A DNA stretch of 32,144 nt from the NCBI GenBank assembly GCA_041550275.1, contig JBFEPA010000002.1, positions 1-32,144 on the forward strand. The letters are read 5' to 3'. This DNA is from Thermoplasmata archaeon. Its GTDB lineage: Archaea; Thermoplasmatota; Thermoplasmata; UBA10834. The notes under the pieces are model-generated. The model did no database searches. It had not been told where the DNA came from and saw only the letters and a program-made list of their open reading frames with translations. A program made the translations under genes and the position numbers. Positions 6,424-25,687 of this stretch are shown here, piece by piece (position 1 is the stretch's first letter; every line of letters starts with the position of its first letter).

Positions 6424-6551
6424 GGAGTCCCTTTATTACACCCTCCCGTCAGGATTGCCAGAGCCGAGTGGATGCGCCAGACTGACACGGCGATCTCTGC
6501 GGGGTCACTCGGGCTGTGTCAATTCATTTGGCCCCAGCCAGGAGGGGAATC

Positions 6552-10142: not shown

Positions 10143-10586
10143 ATGGAGATGGAGTCGGAATCCAAGGAGGAGCGCGCGAGATACAGCCCGAAGATAGTCG
10201 CCTTCTGCTGCAACTGGTGCTCCTATGCTGGTGCTGATCTTGCAGGTACCACGAGGCTGCAGTACCCCACGAACGTCAGAATCATCAGGGTGATGTGTTC
10301 TGGCAGGGTCGACCCGGCCTTTGTGCTGAAAGCATTCTCACTCGGAGCGGACGGCGTGATCATCGCGGGCTGCCATCCATCAGACTGCCATTACATCAAC
10401 GGGAACGAGAAGGCTGCGATGAGAGGCACGTTCCTCTCGGAGTTCCTCGAGGACGCTGGCCTTGAATCGCAACGTTTCAGAGTCGAATGGATTGCTGGCT
10501 CTGAAGGACAGAAGTTCGCGAACGTCGTCAAGCGAATGGTTTCGGAACTGGAGGCGCTCGGCCCAATTGCCGAGGAGAGTGCGTAG
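10143..10586 (+). CDS. mvhD: MvhD-type [2Fe-2S] electron-transfer subunit, copy 1
   Basis: [24 protein letters not shown] and AGCHPSDCHY motifs, ~147 aa. ATG lies 2 nt after the hdrB stop, with a GGGGGAG SD. Confidence 0.9.
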   Translation: MEMESESKEERARYSPKIVAFCCNWCSYAGADLAGTTRLQYPTNVRIIRVMCSGRVDPAFVLKAFSLGADGVIIAGCHPSDCHYINGNEKAAMRGTFLSEFLEDAGLESQRFRVEWIAGSEGQKFANVVKRMVSELEALGPIAEESA

Positions 10587-10588
10587 TG

Positions 10589-13500
10589 ATGGAAGAGATG
10601 AACGTCGTCGGCGCAGCCCTGGTTGTGGGCGGGGGCCCCGCGGGGATGCAGGCCGCATTGGACCTCGCAGAATCTGGATACAAGGTCTACCTTTTGGAGA
10701 CGACACCAAGCATCGGGGGAACAATGGCTCAATTGGACAAGACTTTCCCCACGAACGACTGCTCGATGTGCATACTGTCACCAAAGCTCGTCGCCACTGG
10801 AAGGCACGAAAACATCACCCTTCTCACGAACGCTGAGCTCAAGGAAGTGAAAGGAGAGGCAGGCAGGTTCCACGTGACTGTGACAAGACATCAACGTTTC
10901 ATAGTAGAGGAGAAGTGCACGGGCTGTGGTGTGTGCGCGGAGCATTGTCCCATCGAAGGCGCCAACTCATTCGACAGAGACCTAGCACCTGCCAAGGCGG
11001 TGTACGTCCCCTTCCCTCAGGCAGTGCCGTTGATATACACCATCGACAAGGGCCTCTGCATCGGCTGCGGCATATGCGAGAAGTTCTGCGAGGCGGGAGC
11101 GATTGAATACAGCATGGACTCGGAAGTCAACGAGACCATTGAGGTTGGGGCAATCATTCTCGCCCCTGGCTACGAGGTCTATGACGCATCAAGGAAGAGC
11201 GTGTATGGTCATGGCGCTTACCCTAATGTCGTCAGCAACATCGAGTTCGAGAGGATGCTCAGCGCTTCAGGCCCGACAGAGGGGCACGTGATCAGACCTT
11301 CGGACGGCGATATCCCGACGAAGATCGCGTTCATACAGTGTGTAGGGTCTCGGGATGCCCAGACCCTGACCACCTACTGCTCGTCGTATTGCTGCATGGC
11401 AGCCCTGAAACAGGCTGTAATCGCTCAGGAGCACGTGCCGGGACTCAAGACAACTATATTCTTCATGGATACACGCGCGTTCGGGAAGGAATTCGAAGAG
11501 TATCTCCACCGGGCGGAGAATGAGTATGGAGTCAGGGTACTCAGAAATAACCGGATATCGAAGGTGCAACAAAACCAGGAGACGGGCGATCTTGTGCTCA
11601 GCTTCATAGATGGCGCTGACATCAGCGAGGAACACTTCGACATGGTCGTCCTCTCGGCTGGCGCCAAACCGCCAGAAATGGCGCATCAGCTCGCCAAGAT
11701 GCTTGGCATCAAGACGAACAAGTTTGGCTTCTGTGAGACGGATGAACTCTCGCCGGTCGACAGCTCTTCGCCCGGCATCTACGTTTGCGGAGCGTTCTCC
11801 GGTCCTAAGGACATCCCCGATTCGGTGGCCCAGGCAAGCGGCGCAGCGGGCAAGGCCGCAGCGCTGCTCGCCAGTCAGAGGGGGAAGCTAGTCACCAAGA
11901 GAGAGTACCCCGAGGAGAAGAACCTGGAAGGCCAGGAGCCGCGCTTAGGCGTGTTCGTATGTCATTGCGGCATAAACATCGGAGCGGTCGTGAATGTTCC
12001 AGAAGTGATGGAGTACGCATCGAAACTGCCAGGTGTGGTCTACGCTGAGGCGAACCTGTATACTTGCTCCCAGGATACACAGAAGAAGATCAAAGAGATG
12101 ATCGAGAAGCACGGCCTCAATCGCGTGATCGTGGCGAGCTGCACACCACGCACACACGAACCGCTGTTCCAGAACACCGTGAGAGAGGCCGGACTCAACA
12201 AGTACCTGTTCGAGATGGCCAACATAAGGGACCAATGTTCGTGGGTCCATCGGTTGGAACCCGAGGCTGCGACGAAGAAGGCGAAGGACTTGGTGAGGAT
12301 GGCTGTGGCCAAAGCCAGCATACTGGAGCCACTCCCCCAGCCGAAGATACCAGTCACTCCAGTTGCGCTCGTCATAGGTGGGGGGCTAAGCGGAATGACT
12401 GCCGCTCTGGAGATTGCGAAGGCGGGATACGAAGTACACTTGGTCGAGAAGCAGAAGGACCTAGGTGGTCATCTGAGGACGCTCTACTCAACCCTAGCCG
12501 GTGTGGACCCGCAGGAAACTTTGGCAAACCTGGCGAAGGAAGTGCTCAATCACGACAAGATCAAGGTTCATCTAGAGGACACCGTCGATGAGATCAAGGG
12601 ATACATCGGCAACTTCGAGACCGCTCTGAAGAGCGGCGAGAAGATAGAGCACGGCGCAATCGTGGTCGCGACGGGAGCGATAGAGTACGAACCCAAGGAA
12701 TATCTGTACGGTAAGCATCCCAGGGTAATTAGACAGACTGCCCTCGGAGAGATGCTGGCCAGCGGCAAGTTCGATGCTGAATGCGTTGTGATTGTCCAGT
12801 GTGTCGGATCAAGGAACGACGAGCACCCAAACTGCTCGAGGATCTGCTGCTCGACTGCGATGGCCAACGCTCTGAAGATCAAGAGAGGGTACCCGGACAC
12901 AGACGTGTTCGTTCTGTTCAGGGACATCCGTACGTATGGCTTCGCCGAGGAGAACTACAACGAGGCTGCCCGTCTTGGCGTCAGGTTCCTGAGGTACGAT
13001 CCCGCGACGCCGCCGGAGATCAGTGTGGACGAGGGAAAATTGGAGGTTCACATTGACGAGCAGTTCATCGAAGAGAAGATTGTAATCAAGCCGGATTACC
13101 TAGTGCTCAATGCAGCGGTCCATCCCAATCCCGACAACAAGGGCCTCGCGCAGTTACTTAAGGTCCCCCAGAACAAAGAGGGTTTCTTCCTTGAGGCCCA
13201 CATGAAGCTGAGGCCGGTCGATTTCGCGACCGACGGCATCTTTGTTTGTGGTCTCGCACACTCGCCGAGACTCATTGATGAGAGCATCTCACAAGCCTTG
13301 GCAGCCGCTGCCAGGGTAAACACCGTGTTGTCCAAGCCATTCATAGAGGCTGAAGGCGTAGTTAGTGTCGTGGATGAGGACAAGTGCATCGGATGCGGAA
13401 GATGTGAGGATGTCTGCGAATACGGGGCTCCCGTCGTGGAGGAGATCTCACCTGGCATTTTCAAGTCACGTATTAAGGAAGCGCTCTGCAAGGGCTGTGG

Positions 13501-13624
13501 CTCATGCGCAGTAGAATGCTGTACGAGAGCCATACGACCTAAGCACTTCAGAAGCGACCAGATAATCACGATGATAGAGGCGGCACTCGCCGATGAAGAG
13601 CCGGCACAGGAGGCGAAGACATGA
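10589..13624 (+). CDS. Tandem (double-module) HdrA-like flavo-iron-sulfur protein, copy 1 (unit 2)
   Basis: The N-half has the [12 protein letters not shown] module plus the inserted ferredoxin. It lacks the CHCG N-domain and the C-terminal ferredoxin. The C-half (from ~11930) has the CHCG N-domain ([14 protein letters not shown]), a second Rossmann fold ([27 protein letters not shown]), QCVGSR...CSRICC and the C-terminal ferredoxin ([11 protein letters not shown] / [11 protein letters not shown]). Confidence 0.88.
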
Positions 13625-15216
13625 CGGATGAAGGCTTCGAGCCAAACATAGTCGCCTTCTGCTGCAACTGGTGCTCCTACGCCGGCGCAGATCTGGCAGG
13701 TGTCAGCAGGATGCAGTACCCTCCGAACGCGCGAATAATACGCGTCATGTGCTCGGGCAGGATAGAACCATACTTCGTGCTCAGGGCGCTCGAGCTCGGC
13801 GCTGACGGTGTGCTCGTCGCGGGATGCCACATAGGTGACTGTCACTACATCTCCGGGAATGTCGAGGCGGAGAAGAGGATGAAAGCCACGCAGGAGATGC
13901 TGGACGTGGTAGGCATTGGGAGAGACCGCATGAGACTGGAATGGATTTCCGCCTCCGAGGGACAGAAATTCGCCTCGACGATGAAGGAGTTCACAGACAG
14001 TATCCGCGAGCTAGGCCCCAACCCGATGCCAAGGCTTGCGAAGAAAGTGTACGACCCCGCCAAGCTGAAGTCGAGAGTCGATCACCTGATCGAGGACACT
14101 GGTGCCTTTGACTGCGTCGAGTGCGGCAAGTGCACGACGGTATGCCCGGTAGCCAAGTACGATTCGGAGTTCGCGCCCAGGACCATCGTGCTGAAGGCGA
14201 CGGAGGGACAGGCAGATTCAATCGTCGCCAGCAAAGATATCTGGACCTGCATCACATGTGAACAGTGCAACTCGATGTGCCCGTACAAGGTAGACTACTC
14301 TGGATTCATAAGAGGACTGAGAACCGAAGCTGCGGCAAAGGATGCAACGCCCGCCTGCAGTCAGGGCGGCCTCATGCAGGGGATGATGCGCATACAGGCG
14401 CACGGCGACTTCAAGCAGAACAGGCTGGGATGGCTGACCCCGGAGTTGAAGATCGCGGACAAGGGCGACGTATTCTACTTCACTGGATGCGTAGCGTATT
14501 TCGATGCCGTCTTCAGCGACAGAGAGCTCAACCTCGCTGGCATACCACAGGCGGTAGTCAAGATAATGAACAGCGCTGGCATTACCCCAGTCGTGAGCAA
14601 CGACGAGGTGTGTTGCGGACACGATCTTAACTGGACTGGCGACGAGGAGGGGCTGCAGCGGCTCATGAAGAAGAATGTGGAGGTCATCAAAGCCTCCGGA
14701 GCGAAGACCGTCGTGTTCTCGTGCCCTGAGTGTATGAGGACCTTCGATATGGACTATCAGGACTTCTTGGGTGACTTCGACTTCGAGATGACCCACGTGT
14801 CCGAGTTCGTTGACAATCTAATCCAAGATGGGAAACTGAAGTTCAAGAAGGGCAGTGACAAGCTAACCTTCCAGGATTCGTGCAGACTCGGCAGGCACCT
14901 TGGTATCTACGACCCGCCGAGGAACGCCATGAAGGGCGTCGGAGCGAATGTCGTGGAGATGGAGAACACGAGAGACAAGGCGATATGCTGCGGTGTGAGT
15001 TCTTGGGCCACATGCGACGATATTGCGCGCAAGCTGCAGGTGGAGAGGTTGAAAGAGGCGAAGAAGACTGGAGCTGACTGCCTTGTCACGGGATGCTACA
15101 AGTGTCTGATCCATCTGGCTTGTGCCCGAGACAACAAGCTCGAAGGAGTGCCTAAGGATCAGGTAGACATCAAGATCAAGGACCTCAGTGTAGCGATAGC
15201 GGAGGCGTTGGAATGA
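13621..15216 (+). CDS. MvhD::HdrC-like::HdrB-like (HdrD-type, two CCG domains) triple fusion
   Basis: Residues 1-~135 are MvhD ([32 protein letters not shown]). They are followed by [12 protein letters not shown] / [12 protein letters not shown] (HdrC-like). Then come two CCG sets (FTGC, VCCGHD, SCPEC; DSCRLG, ICCGVSS, TGCYKC). ATGA overlap with the upstream gene. Confidence 0.85.
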
Positions 15217-15262
15217 CGGATTGGATGGGCGGTGCTCATCGCACAAGACTCGCCATCACCCA

Positions 15263-15278
15263 AACGAAACACATAAAA
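15263..15278 (+). promoter_or_regulatory. Candidate internal BRE/TATA-like box (AACGAAAC-AC-ATAAAA)
   Basis: Lies in the only sizeable gap (158 nt) inside the gene train. It shares the AACGAAAC 8-mer with the box at 6408-6415, followed by an A/T-rich hexamer. Confidence 0.25.
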
Positions 15279-15374
15279 GAAGAGACTCAATACCGCAAAG
15301 GCAAAAGGGGTTCGTTGATTGCAGTAGGCACAATGCAAATGCAACTGAATATGAGATTTGAAGGGGGCTTTTGA

Positions 15375-18080
15375 GTGAAGAAATCCGTAATGGTGATTGG
15401 AGGCGGAATTGCCGGAATACAGGCTGCTTTGGACCTAGCCGACAAGGGAATCACGGTCGACCTCGTCGAGAAGATGCCAAGCATTGGCGGAAGAATGGCA
15501 CAGTTGGACAAGACATTCCCTACGAACGACTGCTCGATATGCATACTGGCGCCGAAGATGGCGGACTGCTACGCGCACCCCAACATCAACGTGATGACCT
15601 ACTCGGAGGTAAAGGACATTTCTGGAAAGGCCGGGGATTTCAAGGTTGACGTGCTCAAGAAGGCCAGGTTCGTTGACGAGGAGAAGTGCACGGGTTGTGG
15701 CGACTGCTTCAAGGTGTGCCCTGTCAGCCTCCCGAACGAGTTCGACATGGACATGAGGGAGAGACCTGCCATATACATGCCGTTTCTCCAGTCAGTTCCG
15801 AGAACGGCTACCATAGACAGGGCGGGCGTCGCGCCGTGCTCCGACAAGTGCCCAGCGGGTTTGAGCGCTCAGGGATATGTGGCACTCATACGGGCCGAGA
15901 AGTTCAAGGAAGCGGTGGACCTCATACGAAGGACTATCCCCCTCCCCTCGGTGTGTGGACGCATATGCCATCACCCGTGCGAGGAAGGCTGCAACAGAAC
16001 GGAAGTCGACGATCCAGTGGCCATCGCAGGATTGAAGGCATTCGTGGGGGACTACGTTCGAGAGCAGGGTATGGACGCGCCAGTCCCGATCGAAGTGGAC
16101 CGGAAGGAGAAGGTCGCTGTTGTCGGAGCGGGCCCGGCTGGCCTGGCGGCAGCCTACCGCCTCGCCCTCAAAGGATTCAAAGTCAAGATTTTCGAGGCCA
16201 CGTCGAAGCCAGGTGGTATGCTCTGGTGGGGCATCCCCGATTACCGTCTTCCCAAGGACGTACTGTCAGCAGAGGTTGATCACCTGTTGGCCCATGGCAT
16301 AGAGATCGAGTACGGCAAGACCATCGGCAAGGACCTCACGATCGAGGACCTGAAGAGGGACTACGGCGCCGTCTTCCTGGCTATAGGTGCTCACAAGAGC
16401 CTCAAGCTGGACTTGCCTGGCGAGGACCTCGAAGGCGTCGTCCACGGCGTGGACTTCCTACACAAAGTCGCCGACAAGGAGAAGGTTAGAATCGGCAAGA
16501 AGGTGGCCGTTATAGGCGGAGGAAACGCCGCGATGGACGCTGCAAGAACAGCCCTGCGGATGGGCTCCGACGTGACGGTTATATACCGCCGGACGAAGGA
16601 CGAGATGCCCGCGATTGCGGCCGAGATCAAGGGGGCGGAAGACGAGGGCGTCAGATTCGAGTTCCTGGCATCGCCTGTGAAGATTGAGGGAAAGGGCGGC
16701 AAGATTACCGCCATCGAGTGCATCAGAATGAAGCTTGGAGAGCCGGACAAATCGGGCCGGCCCCGCCCAGTGCCGGTTGAAGGATCGGAATTCACGATCG
16801 AGGTCGACACGGTCATTCCGGCCGTTAGCCAGGCACCGAATCTGGACGCTCTCAGCTCGAAGGCCCTTGCTGTCACGAAGTGGAACACCCTCGAGGTCAA
16901 TCCTGGCAACCTGAGCACGAACATCGAAGGTGTCTTCGCGGGTGGAGATGCTGTGTCTGGACCTGCATCTGCCGTGGAGGCATTCGCAGCAGGCAACAAG
17001 GCCGCGCTGTACATCGAGAAGATGCTGAACGGAGAGAGCATCGAGCCGGAGCCCGAAGAGAAGGACGATCATGTCATCACGCTTGAAAACATCAAAGCAA
17101 GAATGAAGGGTGAGATCACGAAGAGCGAGCGCATCCTCAGGCAACACCTTTCGGACGACAAGCGCAGGACCTCCTTCGAGGAGGTCGAGAAGGTGTTCAC
17201 GAAGGAGGAGGCGATGAAGGAGGCGGCTCGATGTGTGAGCTGCGGACCATGCTCACAGTGTGAGGCGTGCGCCCCTGCCTGCGGTCCGAATGCAATTGAC
17301 TACAAGATGAAGGACAAGGTCGTCACAATGAACCCAGCGGCGATCATAGTCGCCACCGGCTTTGATGTATGGGACCCGACGCCCGCGTCAGAGTACGGCT
17401 ACAAGAAGTACCCCAACGTCTACACGGCGATGGAGTACGAGCGCATGATCAACGCTGCGGGGCCCACTGGCGGGCACATAGTCAGGCGATCCGACGGCGA
17501 ACACCCGAAGAAGCTGGCGTTCATACAGTGCGTAGGATCGAGAAATCCGCAGGTTGGGCATCCCTATTGTTGCGCGGTGTGCTGCATGCACGCCACAAAA
17601 GAGGCGATGCTCGCTCGGGAACACTACGAGGACATCAACTCAACGATATTCTACAAGGACATGAGAGCCTGTGCGAAGGGATTCAATGAATACGTCGAAA
17701 GGGCGAAAAGCGACTATGGAGTCAGCTACGTCAACTCCGACGCGACCGTGCAGGAGAACGCGCAGACGCACAACCCAGTCGTCGTATTCGACGTAGGAGG
17801 CAAGCAACAGTCGGAGGAGTTCGACGCGGTCGTGCTTGCGACCACACTCGTGCCCAGGAAAGATACCGTCGAATTGGCTGAGAAGCTCGGGCTGAAGCTG
17901 ACGGAATTCGGTTTCTTCGAGTCTCCAGACAGCATCCTGGACTTCGGCAGGAGCGAAGTGCCCGGGATATACCTTGCAGGATACTGCGCCGGACCGGCCG
18001 ACATACCGGAATCGGTTGCCCAGGGCTCAAGCGCCGCTGCCAAGGCAGCGGAGATACTCGCCAATTCAGGAGGGGGGTGA
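15375..18080 (+). CDS. HdrA-like FAD module with an inserted NfnB/GltD-like NAD(P)H:flavin module (HdrL-type; unit 3, first half)
   Basis: GTG start 7 nt after AAGGGGG. N-part [15 protein letters not shown]...[19 protein letters not shown] plus CTGCGDCFKVCP. Residues ~150-550 are GltD/NfnB-like (PLPSVCGRICHHPCEEGCNR, VVGAGPAGLAAAYRL, GGGNAAMDAART, FAGGDAV). The sequence then returns to HdrA (EYERMINAAGPTGGH, QCVGSRN...CCAVCC, GIYLAGYCAGPADIPESVAQ). No CHCG N-domain and no C-terminal ferredoxin. Confidence 0.85.
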   Translation: MKKSVMVIGGGIAGIQAALDLADKGITVDLVEKMPSIGGRMAQLDKTFPTNDCSICILAPKMADCYAHPNINVMTYSEVKDISGKAGDFKVDVLKKARFVDEEKCTGCGDCFKVCPVSLPNEFDMDMRERPAIYMPFLQSVPRTATIDRAGVAPCSDKCPAGLSAQGYVALIRAEKFKEAVDLIRRTIPLPSVCGRICHHPCEEGCNRTEVDDPVAIAGLKAFVGDYVREQGMDAPVPIEVDRKEKVAVVGAGPAGLAAAYRLALKGFKVKIFEATSKPGGMLWWGIPDYRLPKDVLSAEVDHLLAHGIEIEYGKTIGKDLTIEDLKRDYGAVFLAIGAHKSLKLDLPGEDLEGVVHGVDFLHKVADKEKVRIGKKVAVIGGGNAAMDAARTALRMGSDVTVIYRRTKDEMPAIAAEIKGAEDEGVRFEFLASPVKIEGKGGKITAIECIRMKLGEPDKSGRPRPVPVEGSEFTIEVDTVIPAVSQAPNLDALSSKALAVTKWNTLEVNPGNLSTNIEGVFAGGDAVSGPASAVEAFAAGNKAALYIEKMLNGESIEPEPEEKDDHVITLENIKARMKGEITKSERILRQHLSDDKRRTSFEEVEKVFTKEEAMKEAARCVSCGPCSQCEACAPACGPNAIDYKMKDKVVTMNPAAIIVATGFDVWDPTPASEYGYKKYPNVYTAMEYERMINAAGPTGGHIVRRSDGEHPKKLAFIQCVGSRNPQVGHPYCCAVCCMHATKEAMLAREHYEDINSTIFYKDMRACAKGFNEYVERAKSDYGVSYVNSDATVQENAQTHNPVVVFDVGGKQQSEEFDAVVLATTLVPRKDTVELAEKLGLKLTEFGFFESPDSILDFGRSEVPGIYLAGYCAGPADIPESVAQGSSAAAKAAEILANSGGG
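15822..17300 (+). other. Domain-level: NfnB/GltD-like insertion within the HdrA inserted-ferredoxin position
   Basis: Boundaries were estimated from where HdrA collinearity with the paralogues is lost (after TIDRAG) and regained (before MNPAAIIVATGFD). Confidence 0.6.
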
Positions 18081-18086
18081 ACGGAC

Positions 18087-19961
18087 ATGGCCGAGAACGC
18101 AAACAGTGAGAAGAAGAAGCCGCGGATAGGGGTATTCATATGCCACTGCGGGTCCAACATAGGCGGTTTTGTCGACGTGAAGGCCGTGACTGAGTATGCG
18201 GCAACCCTTCCGGACGTCGCATATGCGACCGACAATCTCTATACATGTGCCGAGGACGGCCTCAACAACATCAAGGAGAGCATCAAGGAGCACGACCTTG
18301 ACAGAGTAGTCGTATCGAGCTGCACACCACGGACGCACGCCCCGCTCTTCCAGCGCACGTGCGAGGCTGCTGGCGTGAACAAGTATATGTTCACATTCGT
18401 CAACATCCGTGAGCACTGCTCATGGGTCCACATGAAGGAGAGGGAGAAGGCGACCCAGAAGGCAAAGGACTTGGTCAGGATGGGCGTTGCGAGAGCCCGA
18501 TTCCTAGAACCTCAGGAGGAGACGAAGATCGATGTGACGCCCGCCGCACTCGTAGTAGGAGGAGGCGTGTCTGGGATGACGGCAGCGCTGTCACTTGCGA
18601 ACATGGGATTCCCTGTGCATCTCGTCGAGAAGGAAAAGGAGCTTGGAGGATTCGTGAAGAACCTGCACGGCCTCATGATGACCAAGAAGAACGCCAACGA
18701 GACGATCAAGCCGCTCATCGACAAGGTGAACGCCCAGAAGAACATCACCCAGTACCTCGATTCGCACGTCGCGACGGTTGAGGGATTCATAGGCAACTAC
18801 GATGTCTCCATTGGCGGAGAGGGGGCCGAGCCCAAGGAAGTCAAGGTGGGCACCATCATCGTGGCCACGGGCGCGGTTCCGCTGGTACCCGAGGGACTGT
18901 TTGGGTACAAGGAGCACCCGAACGTCGTCACATCCACGGAGTTCGAGGAACTCTGCAACAAGAAGGAGGTCCCCAGACTGAAGAGCGTCGCCTTCATACA
19001 ATGCGTTGGGGCGAGGGGACAGAAAGTCTCTTACTGCTCCAGGATCTGCTGCAATATCGCAGTCAAGACCGCGATAAACATCGCCGAGAACCGCGACAAC
19101 TTGCTGGGCGTGACAGAGGAGAAGGCGGATGCGGGTCAGGCCGTCGAAGAGCCAACCGCGGACATGAAGGCGGATGAAGAGGGAACGGAGCGAAGGCGGA
19201 GGAGAAGGGGCAGAGGACGGCGCGAGGACGACCAGGCCTCTGACGAAAGCGCTGCACCATCCAGTGGAGTCGAGATTACGGTGTTCAACAGGGACGTTAT
19301 GGCGTACGGTGTCGAACACGAGCTCGAGTTCAACAAGGCCAGGGAGAAGAGAGTCAAGTTCATCAGATACCTGCCAGACAACCTCCCGAAGGTATCTGCA
19401 AAGGACGGGAAGCTCGAGGTCGGATACTTCCACGAGACGCTGAAGATGGAGAGGACCATGCCGGTTGACATGGTCATACTCTCGACTCCGCTCGTATCGC
19501 AGCCGGACGCTGCCACACTATCGCAGCTACTCAAAGTACCGCTAGGACAAGATGGCTTCTTCCAGGAGGCGCACGTCAAACTGAGACCGGTCGATTTCGC
19601 GACCGATGGTGTCTACGTGTGCGGAACCTGCAGAGGGCCGGCCGACATAGCAGAGGCAGTCTCCCAGGCGGCCGCAGCTGCCTCGAGGGCAGCGATACCT
19701 CTCGCGAACGGCTTCGTCCAGGCCGAGGCCCTCACGTCGAGGGTCGATGAGACGAAATGCACAGGCTGCGGGACTTGCGTCGAGGTGTGCCCGTACGGCG
19801 CTCTCAGGAAGAACGATGAGGGCATCAGCGAGGTGATCGTAGCAGCGTGCAAGGGTTGTGGTGCCTGCGGTGCCACGTGCCCGGAGAGTGCAATCACTAT
19901 GACGCATTACACGGACCAGCAACTGCTTGCTGAGGCCAAGGCGGCCTTGGAGGAGGTGTGA
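18087..19961 (+). CDS. Second-half-type HdrA (CHCG N-domain + Rossmann + C-terminal ferredoxin) with a charged disordered insert (unit 3, second half)
   Basis: RIGVFICHCGSNIGG...SCTPRTH...REHCSWVH, VVGGGVSGMTAALSLANMGFPVHLVEK, QCVGARG...CSRICC, CTGCGTCVEVCP / CKGCGACGATCP. Collinear with the C-halves of the two tandem proteins. ATG lies 6 nt after the hdrL-type stop, behind GGAGGGGGG. Confidence 0.85.
   Translation: MAENANSEKKKPRIGVFICHCGSNIGGFVDVKAVTEYAATLPDVAYATDNLYTCAEDGLNNIKESIKEHDLDRVVVSSCTPRTHAPLFQRTCEAAGVNKYMFTFVNIREHCSWVHMKEREKATQKAKDLVRMGVARARFLEPQEETKIDVTPAALVVGGGVSGMTAALSLANMGFPVHLVEKEKELGGFVKNLHGLMMTKKNANETIKPLIDKVNAQKNITQYLDSHVATVEGFIGNYDVSIGGEGAEPKEVKVGTIIVATGAVPLVPEGLFGYKEHPNVVTSTEFEELCNKKEVPRLKSVAFIQCVGARGQKVSYCSRICCNIAVKTAINIAENRDNLLGVTEEKADAGQAVEEPTADMKADEEGTERRRRRRGRGRREDDQASDESAAPSSGVEITVFNRDVMAYGVEHELEFNKAREKRVKFIRYLPDNLPKVSAKDGKLEVGYFHETLKMERTMPVDMVILSTPLVSQPDAATLSQLLKVPLGQDGFFQEAHVKLRPVDFATDGVYVCGTCRGPADIAEAVSQAAAAASRAAIPLANGFVQAEALTSRVDETKCTGCGTCVEVCPYGALRKNDEGISEVIVAACKGCGACGATCPESAITMTHYTDQQLLAEAKAALEEV
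19089..19268 (+). other. Domain-level: ~60-aa low-complexity acidic/Arg-rich insertion (…EEKADAGQAVEEPTADMKADEEGTERRRRRRGRGRREDDQASDESAAPSSG)
   Basis: It is in frame. Both flanks align to the paralogues, where only a short GYPDTD / KNPDAE loop occupies this position. Confidence 0.7.
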
Positions 19962-19965
19962 GGAC

Positions 19966-20790
19966 ATGACGCAGAAGCATCACACCGCTCACCACGGCAA
20001 GAAGCACGAGACTGACAATGAGTGGGAGCCGAAGATCGTCGGTTTCCTCTGCAACTGGTGCTCGTACGCCGGCGCTGACCTGTGTGGCGTCAGCAGGTTC
20101 CAGTATCCGACGAACATACGCCTCGTCAGAGTGATGTGCTCTACGCGAGTCAGCCCACACCTCGTGCTCGATGTCTTCGAGGCAGGCGCGGACGGCATAC
20201 TCGTTGGAGGATGTCACATCAACGACTGTCACTACATGACCGGCAACTTCCACACTGAGAAGCGCGTGAACCTCATGAAGAGGCTGCTCAAAGAGGCTGG
20301 GATAGACGAGAGCCGATTGAGACTCGAGTGGGTCTCCGCATCCGAAGGGGAGAAGTTCTCCAAGGTGGTCACGGAATTCACAGAGGAGATCCAGAAGCTG
20401 GGACCGAGTCAAGTGCTCTCGGACGACATGGTGAAGACGAAGATCTCGGCCGCTGACGACGCCTCCGAGACATTCAGATTGAAAGCCCTGGTGGGTAAGG
20501 AGTTCAACCTCCTTACTAAGGGGAACGCATACGGTGAGAAGCTGGACCCTGACAAACTCGCGGGCATCATCGATGCCGCTGCTGAGGACGAGTTCGAAAG
20601 GGCGCTCATACTGGAGCTTGCGAGGATAAGGCCCATGTCGGTCAAGCAGTTGGGAATGGTTATGGACGTCCCGACAGACAAGATACTCAGGCACATCGTT
20701 CTGCTCAGGCAGAACAGCAAGATTGCGATGGAACATCCAGAGGGATTCACTCCGGTATACAAGACCATCGCTATTGGAGGTGAGCAGTGA
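19966..20790 (+). CDS. MvhD-type subunit, copy 3, with His-rich N-tail and C-terminal winged-helix-like extension
   Basis: N-tail MTQKHHTAHHGKKH. MvhD core ([33 protein letters not shown]). A ~127-aa Cys-free extension is homologous to ORF 24286-24669. ATG lies 4 nt after the upstream stop, with a GGAGGAGGTG SD. Confidence 0.85.
   Translation: MTQKHHTAHHGKKHETDNEWEPKIVGFLCNWCSYAGADLCGVSRFQYPTNIRLVRVMCSTRVSPHLVLDVFEAGADGILVGGCHINDCHYMTGNFHTEKRVNLMKRLLKEAGIDESRLRLEWVSASEGEKFSKVVTEFTEEIQKLGPSQVLSDDMVKTKISAADDASETFRLKALVGKEFNLLTKGNAYGEKLDPDKLAGIIDAAAEDEFERALILELARIRPMSVKQLGMVMDVPTDKILRHIVLLRQNSKIAMEHPEGFTPVYKTIAIGGEQ
20407..20787 (+). other. Domain-level: winged-helix-like C-terminal extension of MvhD copy 3
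   Basis: ERALILELARIRPMSVKQLGMVMDVPTDKILRHIVLLRQNSKIAMEHPEGFTPVYKTI has a helix / helix-turn-helix / beta-wing pattern. It aligns by eye with ELERNLLLLQMEQQSKTVHELHDATGIPKPEIVHHIIALKRWRMVEQVGTTGQSPQYKAV of the free ORF. Confidence 0.55.
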
Positions 20791-23700
20791 TGGCAGCAAG
20801 TGACAAGGTCGGTGCAGTCATGGTGGTTGGAGGCGGCATATCGGGCCTGCAGTCCTCCCTTGATCTGGCCGATTCTGGATTCAAGGTATATCTCGTTGAG
20901 AAGCAACCCAGCATAGGCGGCACGATGGCCCAGCTGGACAAGACATTCCCCACGAACGACTGTGCCATGTGCATTATGGCGCCCAAACTCGTGTCGACGG
21001 GGAGACACCACAACATCGAGTTGGTGACGAATGCTGACATCCTGGCGGTGGAAGGCAAGGCGGGCGATTTCACGGTCACCGTCAAGCAGAGGGCGTTGAG
21101 GGTTGACCCCACCAAGTGCACTGGCTGTGGCTCGTGCGCTCAGACCTGCCCGATCGAGACCTCCGATGAGTACAACGAGAGCACGAAGATACGCAAGGCG
21201 ATCTATGTTCGGTACCCACAGGCGGTCCCGCTGGTATACTCCATCGACAAGGACAAGTGCATAGGCTGCGGCATATGCGCAGAGGAGTGCAAGGCCAAAG
21301 CAGTCGTCTATGATCAGGAGGAGAGCACCTCGGAGATCAAAGTGGGCTCGATCATCCTCTCGCCCGGCTTCGACGAGTTCAACGCGCGTCTGAAGGGGGA
21401 ATACGGATACGGCGTCTACAAGAACGTCGTCAACAGCATAGAGTTCGAGAGGATGCTCAGCGCCACGGGACCGTACTTCGGCACAGTCATGCGTCCCTCG
21501 GACGGCGACATCCCGGAGAAGATAGCTTTCATACAATGTGTCGGCTCCAGAGACGAGCAGGTGGGAAACGAGTACTGCTCAGGCGTCTGCTGCATGTACT
21601 CGATCAAGGAGGCCATAATAGCCAAGGAGCATGGAGGGAATATCAAACCCAAGATATTCTTCATGGACATGAGGGCGTTTGGCAAGGAATTCGATGAGTA
21701 CTACAACAGAGCGCAGAACGAGTACGGCATCGAGTTCGTGCGCTCGAGAGTCGCATCCGTATTCGAAGACCCCGAAACGAAGAATCTGATCGTGAAATAC
21801 GTCGAGAAGGGGGAGCCGAAGGAAGAGGAGTTCGGCCTCGTGATCCTTGCCGTAGGCCTCAGGCCACCGGCGGATGCCGAGGCTCTCAGCAAGGTCATTG
21901 GATTCGAGCTGAACTCAGACGGGTTCTGCAAGACGACGACGCTAGAACCGGTCAGTTCCTCGAAGGCAGGCGTCTTCGTCAGCGGCGCATTCTCATCGCC
22001 CAAGGACATCCCGATGACCGTTGCCGAGGCGAGCGGAGCCGCTGCGAAGGCGGCCACGGAGATAGCGTCTGCGAGGGACAGCCTCGTCACCAAGAAGGAA
22101 TACCCAGCGGAGCTGGACATAACAGATCAGGAACCGAGGATAGGCGTGTTCGTATGTCATTGCGGCATAAACATCGGAGGCGTCGTCAAGGTGCCCTCCG
22201 TAACGGAGTATGCCCGGACCCTGCCGAACGTCGCGTACGCTGAAGAGAACCTGTACACGTGCTCCCAGGACACTCAGGAGAAGATCAAGGAGATGATCAA
22301 GGAGCACGACCTCAACCGGGTCGTGGTAGCGAGCTGCACTCCACGGACGCATGAGCCGCTGTTCCAGAACACGATAAAGGAGGCGGGTCTGAACTCGTAC
22401 CTGTTCGAGATGGCGAACATACGCGACCAGTGCTCGTGGATTCACATGCACGAGGCCGAGTCGGCTACGAAGAAGGCGAAGGACCTCGTTCGGATGGCCG
22501 TTGCGAAGGCCCGGTTGCTCGAGCCGCTGGAGAACCTGACCATCGACGTCAACCAGCAGGCGCTGGTGATAGGTGGAGGCGCCACGGGGATGGCTGCCGC
22601 CCTTGAGCTGGCGAAGCAGGGAGTAAAGGTCCACCTGGTCGAGAAGGAGAAGGAGCTCGGAGGCAACATGCGCAAGCTACACTATCTGCCGTCCGGAGAG
22701 GACCCGACGGAGCACGCTGAGGCGATGGCCAGGGAGGTCACCTCCAACGGCAACATCACCGTGCACACGGGAACCGGCATCAAGATGATCGAAGGATACG
22801 TGGGCAACTTCAAGACAGCGCTGGAGAGCGGAGAGGAGATAGAGCATGGCGCTGTGATACTGGCGGTGGGAGGACAGGAGTACAAGCCGAAGGGAGAGTA
22901 CCTTTATGGCGAGAACCCCAACGTCCTCACTCTCCTCGAGTTCAAGGAGAAGCTGAAGAAAGGTGAGGCAAAGGGTGATTCGTATGTGTTCATCCAGTGC
23001 GTCGGCTCGCGTGAGGAAGGCCACCCGAACTGTTCGCGCGTATGCTGCACGGGCACGATGACCGCGGCGATAAAGATTAAGGAGAAGAACCCCGACGCCG
23101 AGGTGTACGTCCTCTACAGGGACATACGGACATACGGCTTCAGAGAGGCCTACTACAAGGACGCCGCCGAGAAGGGCGTCACGTTCATCAGGTTCGAGGA
23201 CGACGTCAAACCGAAGGTCGAGGACAAGGGAGGCAAGCTGCAGGTGACCGTCACGGACGAGGACACTGACAAGGAGGTTGTGCTGACATCTGACTACCTG
23301 GTACTCGCATCGGGAACACGACCATACCCAGAGTCGGAGGCGCTCGCGCCGATGCTCAAGGTCCCGATGACCAAGGAGGGCTTCTTCCTGGAGGCGCATA
23401 TGAAGCTGAGGCCAGTAGATTTCGCAACTGAGGGAGTGTATCTAGCAGGCCTGTCGCACGGCCCCAAGTTCCTCGATGAGAGCATCGGACAGGGGTTGGC
23501 TGCAGTCGCGCGCGCGATGACGATCCTGTCGAAGAAGACGCTCGAAGCGGAAGGCATCGTGGCAAGTGTGGACGAGACGCTTTGCGACGGATGCGGCATA
23601 TGCGTCCCGACGTGCGAGTACAAGGCGCTCGAAATCATCGCCGACAAGAAGGATGAGACGAAGAAGACTCTGGACCTCAACATCGGCCTGTGTAAGGGCT

Positions 23701-23828
23701 GCGGCGCGTGCGTTGGCTCATGCCCATCGGGCGCGCTCACGCAGAAAGGATTCAGGGATGAGCAGATCGTCGCCATGATCGATGCAGCGCTTGAGGATGA
23801 TGCGGAGAAGCAGGAGGTGAGGCAATGA
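20790..23828 (+). CDS. Tandem (double-module) HdrA-like flavo-iron-sulfur protein, copy 2 (unit 4)
   Basis: Same layout as 10589-13624. N-half VVGGGISGLQSSLDL...[19 protein letters not shown] plus inserted ferredoxin. C-half [49 protein letters not shown]...CSRVCC, C-terminal CDGCGICVPTC / CKGCGACVGSCP. ATG overlaps the upstream TGA (TGATG), with a GGAGGTGA SD. Confidence 0.88.
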   Translation: MAASDKVGAVMVVGGGISGLQSSLDLADSGFKVYLVEKQPSIGGTMAQLDKTFPTNDCAMCIMAPKLVSTGRHHNIELVTNADILAVEGKAGDFTVTVKQRALRVDPTKCTGCGSCAQTCPIETSDEYNESTKIRKAIYVRYPQAVPLVYSIDKDKCIGCGICAEECKAKAVVYDQEESTSEIKVGSIILSPGFDEFNARLKGEYGYGVYKNVVNSIEFERMLSATGPYFGTVMRPSDGDIPEKIAFIQCVGSRDEQVGNEYCSGVCCMYSIKEAIIAKEHGGNIKPKIFFMDMRAFGKEFDEYYNRAQNEYGIEFVRSRVASVFEDPETKNLIVKYVEKGEPKEEEFGLVILAVGLRPPADAEALSKVIGFELNSDGFCKTTTLEPVSSSKAGVFVSGAFSSPKDIPMTVAEASGAAAKAATEIASARDSLVTKKEYPAELDITDQEPRIGVFVCHCGINIGGVVKVPSVTEYARTLPNVAYAEENLYTCSQDTQEKIKEMIKEHDLNRVVVASCTPRTHEPLFQNTIKEAGLNSYLFEMANIRDQCSWIHMHEAESATKKAKDLVRMAVAKARLLEPLENLTIDVNQQALVIGGGATGMAAALELAKQGVKVHLVEKEKELGGNMRKLHYLPSGEDPTEHAEAMAREVTSNGNITVHTGTGIKMIEGYVGNFKTALESGEEIEHGAVILAVGGQEYKPKGEYLYGENPNVLTLLEFKEKLKKGEAKGDSYVFIQCVGSREEGHPNCSRVCCTGTMTAAIKIKEKNPDAEVYVLYRDIRTYGFREAYYKDAAEKGVTFIRFEDDVKPKVEDKGGKLQVTVTDEDTDKEVVLTSDYLVLASGTRPYPESEALAPMLKVPMTKEGFFLEAHMKLRPVDFATEGVYLAGLSHGPKFLDESIGQGLAAVARAMTILSKKTLEAEGIVASVDETLCDGCGICVPTCEYKALEIIADKKDETKKTLDLNIGLCKGCGACVGSCPSGALTQKGFRDEQIVAMIDAALEDDAEKQEVRQ

Positions 23829-24283
23829 GCAGCGCAACGCCCAACGCCGGTGGTCAGCCCAAGGCGGAGGAAGAGGATTTCGAGCCGAAGATAATCGTGT
23901 TCTGCTGCAACTGGTGTTCATACGCTGGCGCTGACCTCGCAGGGGTCAGCAGGCTGCAGATGCCCCCGTACTTCAGGGTGATAAGGGTCATGTGCTCTGC
24001 TAGAGTCGACCCTGAGTTCGTCCTGAGGGCGATTCAGAAGGGGGCAGATGGAGTCCTCGTCGCAGGATGTCATCCAGCGGACTGCCACTACATCGGAGGT
24101 AACTACAGGACGCGGAGGAGAGTTGCGCTCCTTCAGATGCTGCTCCAGCAGTTCGGCTATGACCCTGGCAGGCTTAAACTGGAATGGATATCCGCTGGTG
24201 AGGGAGAGAAATTCCAGAAGACCATTGTCGAGTTCACGAACACGATCAACGAGCTAGGGCCGTCTCCGATGGGTGGTGACTGA
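23825..24283 (+). CDS. mvhD: MvhD-type [2Fe-2S] subunit, copy 4 (adjacent to the hydrogenase genes)
   Basis: [38 protein letters not shown] overlap with the upstream gene. Confidence 0.9.
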   Translation: MSSATPNAGGQPKAEEEDFEPKIIVFCCNWCSYAGADLAGVSRLQMPPYFRVIRVMCSARVDPEFVLRAIQKGADGVLVAGCHPADCHYIGGNYRTRRRVALLQMLLQQFGYDPGRLKLEWISAGEGEKFQKTIVEFTNTINELGPSPMGGD

Positions 24284-24285
24284 AC

Positions 24286-24669
24286 ATGACACCGAGGGAC
24301 GGTAGGATCAGGGCGGCGCTGAGGACGCTCGAGGGTGAGCGCATAAGGTGGCTCCTTGGTAAGAAAGAGATGCTTACGACGGGTGAGAACGTGTTCGGCG
24401 AGACAATCACTGACGCGAGATACAGCTTCATACTCCAGAAGGCGGCCGCTGTGGAACTGGAGCGGAACTTGCTGCTTCTTCAGATGGAGCAGCAGTCCAA
24501 GACCGTGCATGAACTGCACGACGCCACAGGCATACCGAAGCCAGAGATCGTCCATCACATCATCGCCCTCAAGAGATGGAGGATGGTCGAGCAGGTCGGC
24601 ACGACGGGGCAGTCGCCGCAGTACAAGGCTGTTCCCAAAAGCATATCCTCGGATGAGGAGGTGAGCTGA
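24286..24669 (+). CDS. Small Cys-free winged-helix-like protein of unknown function (free homologue of the MvhD copy 3 extension)
   Basis: 127-aa ORF tightly coupled on both sides (2 nt after the mvhD stop, 1 nt before the mvhG ATG), with a GGTGGTGA SD. wHTH-like pattern in the C-terminal half. No match to a named family that I can recognise. Confidence 0.7.
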   Translation: MTPRDGRIRAALRTLEGERIRWLLGKKEMLTTGENVFGETITDARYSFILQKAAAVELERNLLLLQMEQQSKTVHELHDATGIPKPEIVHHIIALKRWRMVEQVGTTGQSPQYKAVPKSISSDEEVS

Positions 24670-24670
24670 G

Positions 24671-25687
24671 ATGGCAGACAAGATTAAGATTGCGCAGTAC
24701 TGGGGCGCTGGATGCGGAGGATGCGACGTCGCCCTGCTGGACATAGACGCGAAGATACTGGATGTACACGCCATTGCCGAGGTGGTCTTCTGGCCAATCG
24801 GGTTCGACGGCAAGCTCTCCGAGATAGAGGCGATGCCTGACAAGTCGATCACGGTGTCGTTCTACAACGGCGCGATAAGGAACAGCGAGAACGAGCATGT
24901 CGCGAAGGTGCTTCGAGAGAAGTCTGCGGTCATGATAGCATTCGGATCTTGCGCATGTTTCGGCGGAACGCCAGGCTTGGCGAACGTGACGAACAGGGAG
25001 GAGATCTTCCAGACTGTGTACAAGGACACCGTTTCCACTGACAACCCTGACTTCGTGACGCCACAAACGCATTGCACGGTTCCAGAGGGCGAGGTTGACC
25101 TCCCTGTGTTCTATGAAAGCGTCAAGACGCTCGACGAGGTCGTGGATGTTGACTACTTCATGCCTGGATGCCCACCAACGGTGAACCTCATCGCTTTGGC
25201 GGTCGACGCGGTGGCAAAGCATGTTACGGAAGGCGCGGACCTGCCTCCGAAGGGCACCATCATCGCCTCGGACAAGACGCTTTGCGACGAATGTGACCGC
25301 GAACGCGTCGAGAAGGATAGGCGAATCGAGAGGATCTACCAGTCGTACGAGATCAAGGCGGATCCGAAGAAGTGCCTTCTCGACCAGGGAATCATCTGCA
25401 TAGGCCCCGCGACGAGAGCTGGCTGCGGATCCATGTGTCCGAAAGCCAACATGCCCTGCAGGGGATGCATGGGCCCGACGAAGGCCGTCATGGACCACGG
25501 TGGAAGCATGCTGAGCGCACTGTCGTCGCTCCTGAATATCACAGATTCGGAGTCAAAGTTAAGTGAGGAGCAGATAATGGAACTAATGATGCAGGTGAAG
25601 GATCCGCTCGGAACCTTCTATGCCTTCACGCTCCCGAAGTCGCTGCTCAAGAGGACTGTGACCGAGAAGCGCAAGAAGAAGGGGTGA
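24671..25687 (+). CDS. mvhG: MvhG, small subunit of F420-non-reducing (Mvh-type) [NiFe] hydrogenase
   Basis: N-terminal WGAGCGGCDVALLD proximal-cluster motif, GSCACFGG, MPGCPP, and C-terminal CIGPATRAGCGSMCP...PCRGCMGP cluster motifs. Confidence 0.92.
   Translation: MADKIKIAQYWGAGCGGCDVALLDIDAKILDVHAIAEVVFWPIGFDGKLSEIEAMPDKSITVSFYNGAIRNSENEHVAKVLREKSAVMIAFGSCACFGGTPGLANVTNREEIFQTVYKDTVSTDNPDFVTPQTHCTVPEGEVDLPVFYESVKTLDEVVDVDYFMPGCPPTVNLIALAVDAVAKHVTEGADLPPKGTIIASDKTLCDECDRERVEKDRRIERIYQSYEIKADPKKCLLDQGIICIGPATRAGCGSMCPKANMPCRGCMGPTKAVMDHGGSMLSALSSLLNITDSESKLSEEQIMELMMQVKDPLGTFYAFTLPKSLLKRTVTEKRKKKG

Follow-up and report, generated by a model that had tools for sequence, protein, structure and literature searches.

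The 32,144-nucleotide window analysed here (Thermoplasmata archaeon, GenBank assembly GCA_041550275.1, contig JBFEPA010000002.1, positions 1–32,144 of the forward strand) contains two adjacent open reading frames (ORFs), ORF A (901 amino acids, GTG start; 15375–18080) and ORF B (624 amino acids, ATG start; 18087–19961), which correspond to the two halves of an HdrA-type protein and of which the first carries an inserted module predicted to bind reduced nicotinamide adenine dinucleotide phosphate (NADPH). Both belong to a widespread family, represented by HdrL in sulfate reducers and by HdrA-NfnB in the ANME-1 group of anaerobic methanotrophic archaea (ANME), and the pair is a clean split member of a family already known from genomes, not a new kind of system. 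Together with the long MvhD encoded directly downstream, A and B could form a two-gene HdrL/HdrA-NfnB in which NADP(H) occupies the ferredoxin arm and H2 drives bifurcation to a disulfide and NADP+, a reading to which we assign a probability of about 0.5. A first-pass annotation of the window had described the pair as a split tandem HdrA with an NAD(P)H-type module in its first half; the finding is real and its interpretation was largely right, although only part of it is supported, as detailed below.

Results

Gene structure of ORFs A and B

ORF A is of the HdrA N-half type, with a TrxR-like flavin adenine dinucleotide (FAD) domain and an inserted ferredoxin domain that is interrupted by the NADPH module, and ORF B is of the C-half type, with an N-terminal cluster domain, a second FAD domain, and a C-terminal 2×[4Fe-4S] ferredoxin domain. 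In a three-way alignment, the pair is collinear end to end with the two tandem HdrA proteins of the same window, T1 (10586–13624) and T2 (20787–23828), the differences being one large insertion in A and a charged loop of 56 residues in B. The correspondence of A to the N-half and of B to the C-half of the tandem proteins, as first annotated, is therefore confirmed. The pair is not, however, a split version of these neighboring paralogues. Without its insertion, A is 45–48% identical to the N-halves of T1 and T2, and B is 45–47% identical to their C-halves; they represent a separate family, whose usual form is a single polypeptide of ~1,480 amino acids that is 50–58% identical to A. A recent split of T1 or T2 is ruled out by the same 45–48% identity, compared with the 56% found between T1 and T2 themselves.

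The TGA of A and the ATG of B are separated by 6 bases, and B has its own ribosome-binding site, GGAGGGGGG (18069–18077), located within the last codons of A; the short gap and the separate Shine-Dalgarno sequence had both been pointed out before. The two ORFs share a reading frame (18087 − 15375 = 2712), with the TGA and two codons between them (18078–18086), and the same-frame junction was also observed in the relatives that are 81% and 91% identical (loci L085 and L087). The junctions of other split relatives are different: L001 (70% identical) has an out-of-frame spacer of 5 nt, L003 (55%) is out of frame, and in L086 (58%) the two genes overlap by 4 nt. Because these more distant split relatives have out-of-frame spacers or an overlap, the shared frame of A and B is incidental, and the same junctions rule out read-through of the in-frame TGA or its decoding as selenocysteine. 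A metagenome-assembled genome (MAG) of the Dehalococcoidales (L005) likewise has the split form.

Distribution of the family

The 120 closest relatives of A were compared. Of the 119 that are longer than 800 amino acids, 89 are single chains of 1,426–1,565 residues covering both A and B, and 30 are split, with ~900 residues and an end where A ends. Neighbor-joining trees (60 bootstrap replicates) have a fused form at the root and need three to five changes between the fused and split states, never one. Among the matches listed, the full-length relatives come from Dehalococcoidales, Syntrophobacteraceae, Desulfococcus, Syntrophaceae, Thermotogae, and other MAGs. The nearest database proteins are 91–92% identical and carry the labels Thermoplasmata or Methanobacteriota archaeon, and a syntenic copy of the locus (L087) is present on the 1.70-Mb chromosome CP070748.1.

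The name HdrL was given in Desulfobacterium autotrophicum in 2009 (Strittmatter 2009, PMC2702500), and the protein has been detected in the proteome of Syntrophobacter (Sedano-Nunez 2018, PMC5947623). Neither a purification, nor enzyme data, nor a solved structure for HdrL or HdrA-NfnB was found in the searchable literature and structures, in line with the earlier statement that HdrL-type proteins have been noted in genomes and are not biochemically resolved.

NfnB-bearing HdrA proteins occur in two architectures. In L007, L009, and L015 (Saprospiraceae, Actinomycetes MAGs, and an archaeon), the module is carried by a single full-length HdrA, which has both terminal domains of its own and is encoded in an hdrCB-hdrA-mvhDGA operon, and in L005 and L014 (Thermotogae, Dehalococcoidales) by a protein of the two-half type. 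The protein of L014 shows an apparent partial duplication within the module.

Cofactor ligands of the HdrA parts

To map the ligands, the HdrA modules of the window were aligned with the Methanothermococcus HdrA sequence (5ODC_A), which was rebuilt from an alignment; conservation was counted over 120 family members for A and over 91 for the C-halves. Equivalents of Cys194 and Cys197 are found in A, as are the two CxxCxxCxxxC motifs of the inserted ferredoxin domain, the four cysteines for the FAD-proximal cluster, and the counterpart of Lys409; an N-terminal cluster domain and a C-terminal ferredoxin domain are missing. In B, the cysteines of the N-terminal domain are present, together with a four-cysteine cluster and a Lys409 equivalent of its own and with all eight cysteines of the C-terminal ferredoxin domain; the CxxC pair and the inserted ferredoxin domain are missing. 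The four HdrA domains are divided between the two chains, and A and B together hold one full set. Conservation across the family extends to all eight cluster sites in the HdrA parts, and the FAD-binding GxGxxG motifs, GGGIAG in A (residues 9–14) and GGGVSG in B (residues 158–163), are invariant in the relatives.

The equivalent of Cys194/Cys197 is the CSIC motif with Cys53 and Cys56 of A (15531–15542), which is invariant in the 120 family members. In HdrA, Cys197 completes the cluster of the partner's N-terminal domain (Chadwick 2022, PMC9012536). The AlphaFold2 model of the A monomer has a mean predicted local distance difference test (pLDDT) score of 89.3 and a predicted template modeling (pTM) score of 0.85, and the stretch around Cys53 and Cys56 is of low pLDDT (block means of 54 and 63 for residues 41–60, and values below 50 for residues 47–51), a poor order that would be expected for a partner-dependent site. 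By alignment and family conservation, the first motif of the inserted ferredoxin domain, CxxCxxCxxxCP, is located at 15687–15722; the second, CSQCEACAPAC (17250–17282), starts two residues after the RCVSC of the inserted module. The cysteines of the FAD-proximal cluster (C719, C732, C736, and C737 of A, equivalent to C386, C399, C403, and C404 of HdrA) and Lys742, equivalent to Lys409, are encoded at 17529–17600; the corresponding residues of B are C306, C317, C321, C322, and K327. Lys409 of HdrA hydrogen-bonds N5 of the bifurcating FAD (PMC6405883), and K742 is present in 120/120 family members.

With the NCBIfam model HdrA2, A scored 523 bits, B 521, and the canonical HdrA of the window (6516–8645) 953, all below the cut-off of 1100, and neither A nor B reached the NCBIfam equivalog cut-offs for HdrA, HdrA2, or hdrA_Methbact. 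From their sequences, we infer that A and B would pair as a pseudo-symmetric heterodimer of the HdrA type, with a single copy of each cofactor domain. An interaction between them is supported by Rosetta-stone evidence, since 89 of 119 close relatives carry both in one chain.

Some sequence features of the halves lie outside the cofactor ligands. Just after the helix with the Lys409 equivalent, B has the 56-residue loop mentioned above, rich in Glu and Arg (EEGTERRRRRRGRGRREDD; 19101–19268), which is confined to the lineage of the window: it has 51 residues in L001 and 0–2 in all 89 fused relatives. Both halves read GPADI (A, 17991–18008; B, 19635–19652) where HdrA and most fused relatives read GPKDI. 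The Lys of this GPKDIP motif is kept in 85/89 fused proteins, is Ala, Met, or Gln in 30/31 split N-halves, including A, and is replaced by Ala or Ser in 6/6 split B proteins (the window, L001, L003, L085, L086, and L087); over three to five independent fissions, its loss accompanies the separation of the genes. The possibility that this residue was the Lys409 equivalent was discarded by numbering against 5ODC_A, in which Lys409 is the Lys of CCMYAMK, present in both A and B.

The inserted GltD/NfnB-type module

The insertion comprises residues 153–625 of A (15831–17249) and is a complete GltD/NfnB-type module with two [4Fe-4S] sites and FAD and NADPH motifs. Its length is ~470 amino acids, not the ~400 of the first-pass annotation, which was right in that only the split copy carries it: in the alignments, the insertion is missing from the canonical HdrA, T1, and T2. 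Scores were above the cut-offs for the Pfam families Fer4_20 (73.4 bits, cut-off 25.8) and Pyr_redox_2 (169.8 bits, cut-off 26.1) and for NCBIfam PRK12771 (551.7 bits, cut-off 516). Among solved chains, the insertion matched NfnA of Caldicellulosiruptor NfnABC (9BOV_A, E = 2e-130), NfnA of Thermococcus sibiricus (9N5U_A, E = 2e-123), StnC of Sporomusa (8OH5_C, E = 1e-117), and NfnB of Thermotoga (4YLF_B, E = 2e-99), so that its assignment as GltD/NfnB-like stands. As judged from sequence, matches of this strength, at such ORF lengths and E-values, are far beyond chance. When the model of A was used as a Foldseek query, the NfnA, StnC, and NfnB chains were recovered with a root mean square deviation (rmsd) of 2.1–2.8 Å over ~480–505 columns, as were HdrA chains; no solved chain with both HdrA and NfnB-type modules was found among the matches.

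The two dinucleotide-binding signatures previously noted are intact: the FAD motif is GAGPAG (residues 251–256; 16125–16142) and the NADPH motif is GGGNAA (residues 381–386; 16515–16532). The module also has a YRR motif (residues 404–406; 16584–16592) and a GGD motif (16941–16955), and its predicted [4Fe-4S] ligands are C155, C159, C194/C198, C202, C206, K221, C620, and C623. Across the 120 relatives, the motifs for FAD, NADPH, and the clusters show little or no variation, and YRR is present in 114. Because the YRR after the second GxGxxA is shared with NADPH-binding enzymes (9BOV, 9N5U, 8OH5, 4YLF, and 5JCA), NADPH is predicted as the nucleotide; the sequence thus speaks for NADPH rather than for the NADH dependence that had been among the first suggestions.

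The order of the segments distinguishes the module from NfnB. Residues 9–43 of NfnB (ending in RCLQC) match residues ~590–624 of A, and NfnB 45–462 match A 153–554. The contiguous RCx2Cx4Cx3CPV of NfnB is cut in A, where PCSDKCP (154–160) opens the insertion and RCVSC (619–623) closes it. StnC and the NfnA of Bfu-type NfnABC have the segment order of A, with the RCxxC segment after the Rossmann domains. In addition, Lys221 of A, invariant in the 120 relatives, stands where NfnB and NfnL have the Glu of Gx2ER and aligns with Lys170 of StnC, which has been shown by experiment to ligate the FAD-proximal cluster. Because of the segment order and Lys221, the module was classified as of the StnC/NfnA(Bfu) type and not as a classical NfnB. 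The flavin of StnC and NfnA is non-bifurcating: a hydride from NADPH comes in and electrons go out singly. No NfnA-like partner ([2Fe-2S] plus FAD) was found among the ORFs of the window scanned with Pfam.

On its N-terminal side, the insertion borders directly on the TIDR segment, which is located ahead of the second cluster motif of the ferredoxin domain, and it ends two residues before this motif (RCVSCGP-CSQCEACAPAC). The site is identical in L005, L007, L009, L014, and L015, which include bacterial and archaeal HdrA-NfnB proteins of both architectures, and the NfnB-like insertion of ANME-1 HdrA9–11 occupies the same place (Chadwick 2022, PMC9012536).

The long MvhD and its winged-helix extension

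The third mvhD copy of the window (19966–20790) starts 4 nt after the stop of B and encodes 274 amino acids, with an MvhD [2Fe-2S] domain followed by a C-terminal extension of ~125 residues that ends in a winged helix. A long mvhD gene is located 3′ of the A/B-type genes in every related locus examined, including L001, L003, L004, L085, L086, and L087, and the protein is 66–91% identical among 120 matches. The structure model has an MvhD fold like that of 5ODC_D (54% identity) and a helix-helix-helix-strand-strand winged helix of the ArsR/SmtB type. The extension alone gave no match in Pfam, its fold being recognized only from the structure prediction.

A small ArsR-like ORF (24286–24669), between mvhD copy 4 (23825–24283) and mvhG, is homologous to this extension (29% identity over 110 amino acids, E = 2e-13). 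By this homology, MvhD and the winged helix make up one protein behind the split HdrA (A/B) and two proteins behind the fused HdrA (T2). For the small winged-helix protein, which is also encoded in L001, L085, and L087, a role as a structural adaptor is more probable than one in regulation. The [2Fe-2S] motif is FLCNWC in the long MvhD (20044–20061) and FCCNWC in the other copies (10203–10220, 13657–13674, and 23900–23917). Of the four copies, the long MvhD alone has no extra Cys beside the cluster ligands, and its L28 is invariant in 38 aligned long-MvhD sequences.

Organization of the locus

The window is one long gene cluster on the plus strand, to which all the features described in this work belong, and the gene order was read from Pfam and NCBIfam scans. 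The cluster starts with hypB, hypF, hypC, hypA, and hypD, followed by the canonical hdrA, hdrC, hdrB, and mvhD copy 1. Then come T1, a gene for an MvhD-HdrC-HdrB fusion (531 amino acids; 13621–15216), ORF A, and ORF B, and the last part is composed of the long mvhD, T2, mvhD copy 4, the small winged-helix ORF, mvhG, mvhA, and the gene for a maturation protease. MvhG and MvhA (24671–27207) make up a [NiFe] hydrogenase, through which H2 may supply electrons to the HdrA units of the cluster.

The MvhD-HdrC-HdrB fusion, directly upstream of A, is a candidate disulfide-reducing partner of either T1 or A/B. L085 and L087 encode the same fusion, while L001 has mvhD and hdrCB as separate genes. HdrC and HdrB genes often adjoin A/B-type genes, but not always, since none was found within 10 kb in L086. 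In L007, L009, L014, and L015, the HdrA-NfnB gene is located between hdrCB and mvhD-mvhG-mvhA.

In the tandem proteins, the C-halves have Ala (T1; 12845–12865) and Thr (T2; 23043–23063) at the position of Lys409, and the N-halves keep the Lys (11390–11410 and 21588–21608, respectively). In this respect, the C-halves resemble the non-bifurcating flavin site of BamE (Gln768).

The gap of 158 nt upstream of ORF A contains the block CAAACGAAACACATAAAAGAAGAG (15260–15283), a candidate archaeal promoter element for A, B, and the long MvhD. In the aligned gaps upstream of A in L087 (the 91% relative) and L085 (81%), AACGAAACACATAA is invariant and its flanks have diverged; the block may be an internal promoter. 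The start codon of ORF A varies among aligned relatives, being GTG, TTG, or ATG.

Discussion

A proposed role for A, B, and the long MvhD

In the mechanism that we propose, B would contribute the cluster domain at its N-terminus and the ferredoxin domain at its C-terminus, where MvhD would dock and electrons would enter. A would contribute Cys56, which would complete the N-terminal cluster of B, the FAD with Lys742, the FAD-proximal cluster leading towards HdrC and HdrB, and the inserted ferredoxin domain. The inserted FAD would exchange a hydride with NADP(H), and single electrons would move between this FAD, the two [4Fe-4S] clusters of the module, the two clusters of the ferredoxin domain, and the HdrA flavin of A. 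From the latter, one route would go through the proximal cluster towards HdrCB, and the other through the domains of B to MvhD. The arm of the inserted ferredoxin domain, which in canonical HdrA delivers electrons to free ferredoxin, would thus be occupied by NADP(H). H2 would enter by MvhAG and MvhD, and of each pair of electrons, one would go downhill to the disulfide at HdrCB and the other uphill to NADP+. Here we infer the direction of electron flow, the cluster-to-cluster distances, and the identity of the disulfide.

The H2-driven direction is favored for two reasons. The HdrCB-HdrA(NfnB)-MvhD-MvhG-MvhA operons of L007, L009, L014, and L015 show that the module coexists with all the canonical Mvh-Hdr partners, which are also encoded in the cluster of the window, and H2 alone, given textbook redox potentials, cannot reduce NADP+ to a highly reduced NADPH pool at environmental H2 pressures. 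Several observations weigh against this proposal. Near many HdrL genes (L004, L005, L006, L008, and those of sulfate reducers), neither a hydrogenase nor a formate dehydrogenase is encoded, which favors NAD(P)H as the donor there, and GltD-type modules are usually NADPH-oxidizing inputs. The window has a single spare HdrCB for three extra HdrA units, and the lack of HdrBC within 10 kb in L086 means that the disulfide branch is not universal. Finally, the Lys409 equivalent is kept in B and in 79 of 91 C-halves of the family, while the tandem paralogues and BamE have lost it, so that the second flavin could be more than a structural element.

Alternative explanations

The main rival, which we consider possible, is that NADPH is the donor and no hydrogenase is involved, the flavin of A bifurcating to a disulfide (through HdrCB) and, by the ferredoxin domain of B and MvhD, to ferredoxin or another low-potential acceptor. 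This would parallel the F420H2-driven HdrA2B2C2, and the redox potential of cellular NADPH is close to that of F420H2. The modules of StnC, NfnA, and GltD are NADPH inputs, and the loci L004, L005, L006, and L008 contain only HdrL, MvhD, and sometimes HdrBC. It is also the reading of HdrL in the literature on sulfate reducers, in which the protein has been proposed to take electrons from NADH (PMC2702500, PMC5947623). However, the module is wired to what is the low-potential output arm in the solved enzymes of the HdrA type, and an entry at this point would need another internal electron route; in addition, the gene sits with mvhDGA in several genomes, as it does in the window. A different alternative, in our view unlikely, is that the inserted flavin is a second bifurcation site, as in NfnAB, which would make a two-site bifurcating enzyme, an idea already raised for the HdrA-NfnB of ANME-1 (Chadwick 2022, PMC9012536). 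The bifurcating NfnB and NfnL share 41% identity with the insertion, and the Arg that contacts the flavin N5 in NfnB is kept as R291 in 120/120 relatives, but the same Arg is found in StnC, where it makes no such contact and there is no bifurcation. Moreover, the segments of the module follow each other as in StnC and NfnA(Bfu), in an order that is permuted in NfnB; the module has Lys221, the counterpart of the cluster ligand K170 of StnC, where NfnB has the Glu of Gx2ER, and has no NfnA-like partner among the ORFs of the window. For the same reasons, while the link between the pyridine-nucleotide pool and the HdrA/MvhD network suggested by the first-pass annotation is the natural reading of the locus, its NfnAB-like bifurcation is the less likely part.

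It is improbable, too, that energetic coupling is absent, the protein acting as a simple, non-bifurcating NADPH:disulfide oxidoreductase, or transferring electrons from NADPH to MvhD, and its second HdrA half being purely structural. In favor of this reading, the second flavin of BamE is regarded as structural (bioRxiv 10.64898/2026.04.10.717634), and some loci are devoid of HdrBC. Against it, the Lys409 equivalent is present in 120/120 A-type proteins and mostly kept in the B-type halves, and the conservation of all eight HdrA cluster sites would be hard to explain for a linear reductase. That the split itself results from misassembly or a frameshift, or marks a normally fused gene turned pseudogene, could be suspected from the common frame of A and B, only a TGA and two codons apart, and from the fused state of most relatives. 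We regard this as very improbable: the split is kept in relatives of 55–92% identity, from independent samples and with differing junctions, B has a ribosome-binding site and an ATG of its own, and ~30 database proteins end where A ends.

An extension of the proposed H2-driven mechanism, rather doubtful at present, is that the cassette formed by A, B, the long MvhD, T2, MvhD, the winged-helix protein, and MvhGA could assemble into one supercomplex, in which two HdrA-type bifurcation modules would be coupled one after the other, the first with NADP(H) at its low-potential arm. This arrangement fits the cassette order, which is conserved in L001, L004, L085, L086, and L087, and the presence of a Lys409 equivalent at each of the two flavins of A/B. 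An analogous coupling of two bifurcation modules has been described for class II benzoyl-CoA reductase (bioRxiv 10.64898/2026.04.10.717634). If true, the supercomplex would be a "geared" machine making NADPH, or a product of still lower potential, from H2 at environmental pressures.

HdrL and HdrA-NfnB are abundant in anaerobes, including sulfate reducers, syntrophs, Dehalococcoidia, ANME-1, and Thermoplasmata, and have repeatedly been proposed to provide the missing connection of NAD(P)H with the chemistry of disulfides or ferredoxin. The present analysis narrows the hypotheses on this enzyme type to a module of the non-bifurcating StnC/NfnA type, for which NADPH is predicted, wired into the ferredoxin arm. 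Because the locus offers the enzyme in naturally separate and smaller pieces (901, 624, and 274 amino acids), with the predicted cofactor ligands intact and plausible partners adjacent, it is a convenient target for expression and cryo-electron microscopy, and its value is that of a tractable representative of a long-standing uncharacterized enzyme type.

Comparison with known systems

As compared by description, the HdrL proteins of D. autotrophicum HRM2 and Syntrophobacter fumaroxidans are, like A/B, large HdrA-like proteins with a glutamate-synthase-type NAD(P)H domain; they likewise have an mvhD gene 3′ and are often encoded near hdrABC (PMC2702500, PMC5947623). A function linking pyridine nucleotides to a disulfide has been proposed for HdrL from genomics and proteomics only (PMC2702500, PMC5947623). 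A/B differs in being encoded by two genes, in an archaeon, with no selenocysteine, and in that NADPH rather than NADH is predicted. In the HdrA9–11 proteins of ANME, an NfnB-like insertion of ~500 amino acids interrupts the inserted ferredoxin domain, as in A, and the halves of tandem or fused ANME HdrA proteins, like A and B, complement each other in the N-terminal domain and Cys197, which implies a heterodimer (Chadwick 2022, PMC9012536). Unlike the ANME-1 proteins as described, in which the insertion is in HdrA, A has it in the N-half of a two-half architecture, and the order of the halves in A-B is reversed with respect to the ANME fusions, where the half with the N-terminal domain comes first (PMC9012536).

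In BamE of class II benzoyl-CoA reductase, a fused HdrA dimer has been resolved structurally: bifurcation takes place at the flavin of the N-half, which has a Lys, low-potential electrons leave by the inserted ferredoxin domain, and the second flavin, with a Gln, is considered structural (bioRxiv 10.64898/2026.04.10.717634). T1 and T2 follow the BamE pattern, and B departs from it by having Lys instead of Gln. The MvhD-like adaptor BamF is more than 100 amino acids longer than usual and has a winged helix-turn-helix, to which the 274-residue MvhD is similar (bioRxiv 10.64898/2026.04.10.717634). BamE, on the other hand, has no NADPH module, its pyridine-nucleotide input being the separate HydBC-like BamGHI, and BamF contains selenocysteine.

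The best matches of the module, StnC (8OH5) and NfnA of the Bfu-type NfnABC (9BOV and 9N5U), share with it 44% identity, an rmsd of 2.1–2.8 Å, the segment order, the Lys, and the YRR motif, but there the module is part of a NuoG/FdhF-like subunit from which electrons pass to a bifurcating core of the HydBC type, while in A it is built into HdrA. NfnB and NfnL (4YLF and 5JCA) have the same fold, FAD, NADPH, and two [4Fe-4S] clusters as the insertion, at 41% identity; NfnB differs in its circularly permuted order, in having Glu for Lys221, and in its NfnA partner, of which the window has no counterpart. Lastly, the MvhADG-HdrABC complex of methanogens (5ODC) has in common with this locus the HdrA fold, all the cluster ligands, Lys409, and the clustering of the genes for MvhD, MvhGA, and HdrBC. 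It is unlike A/B in being built on a homodimer of one full-length HdrA and in having ferredoxin, not NADP(H), at the inserted ferredoxin domain.

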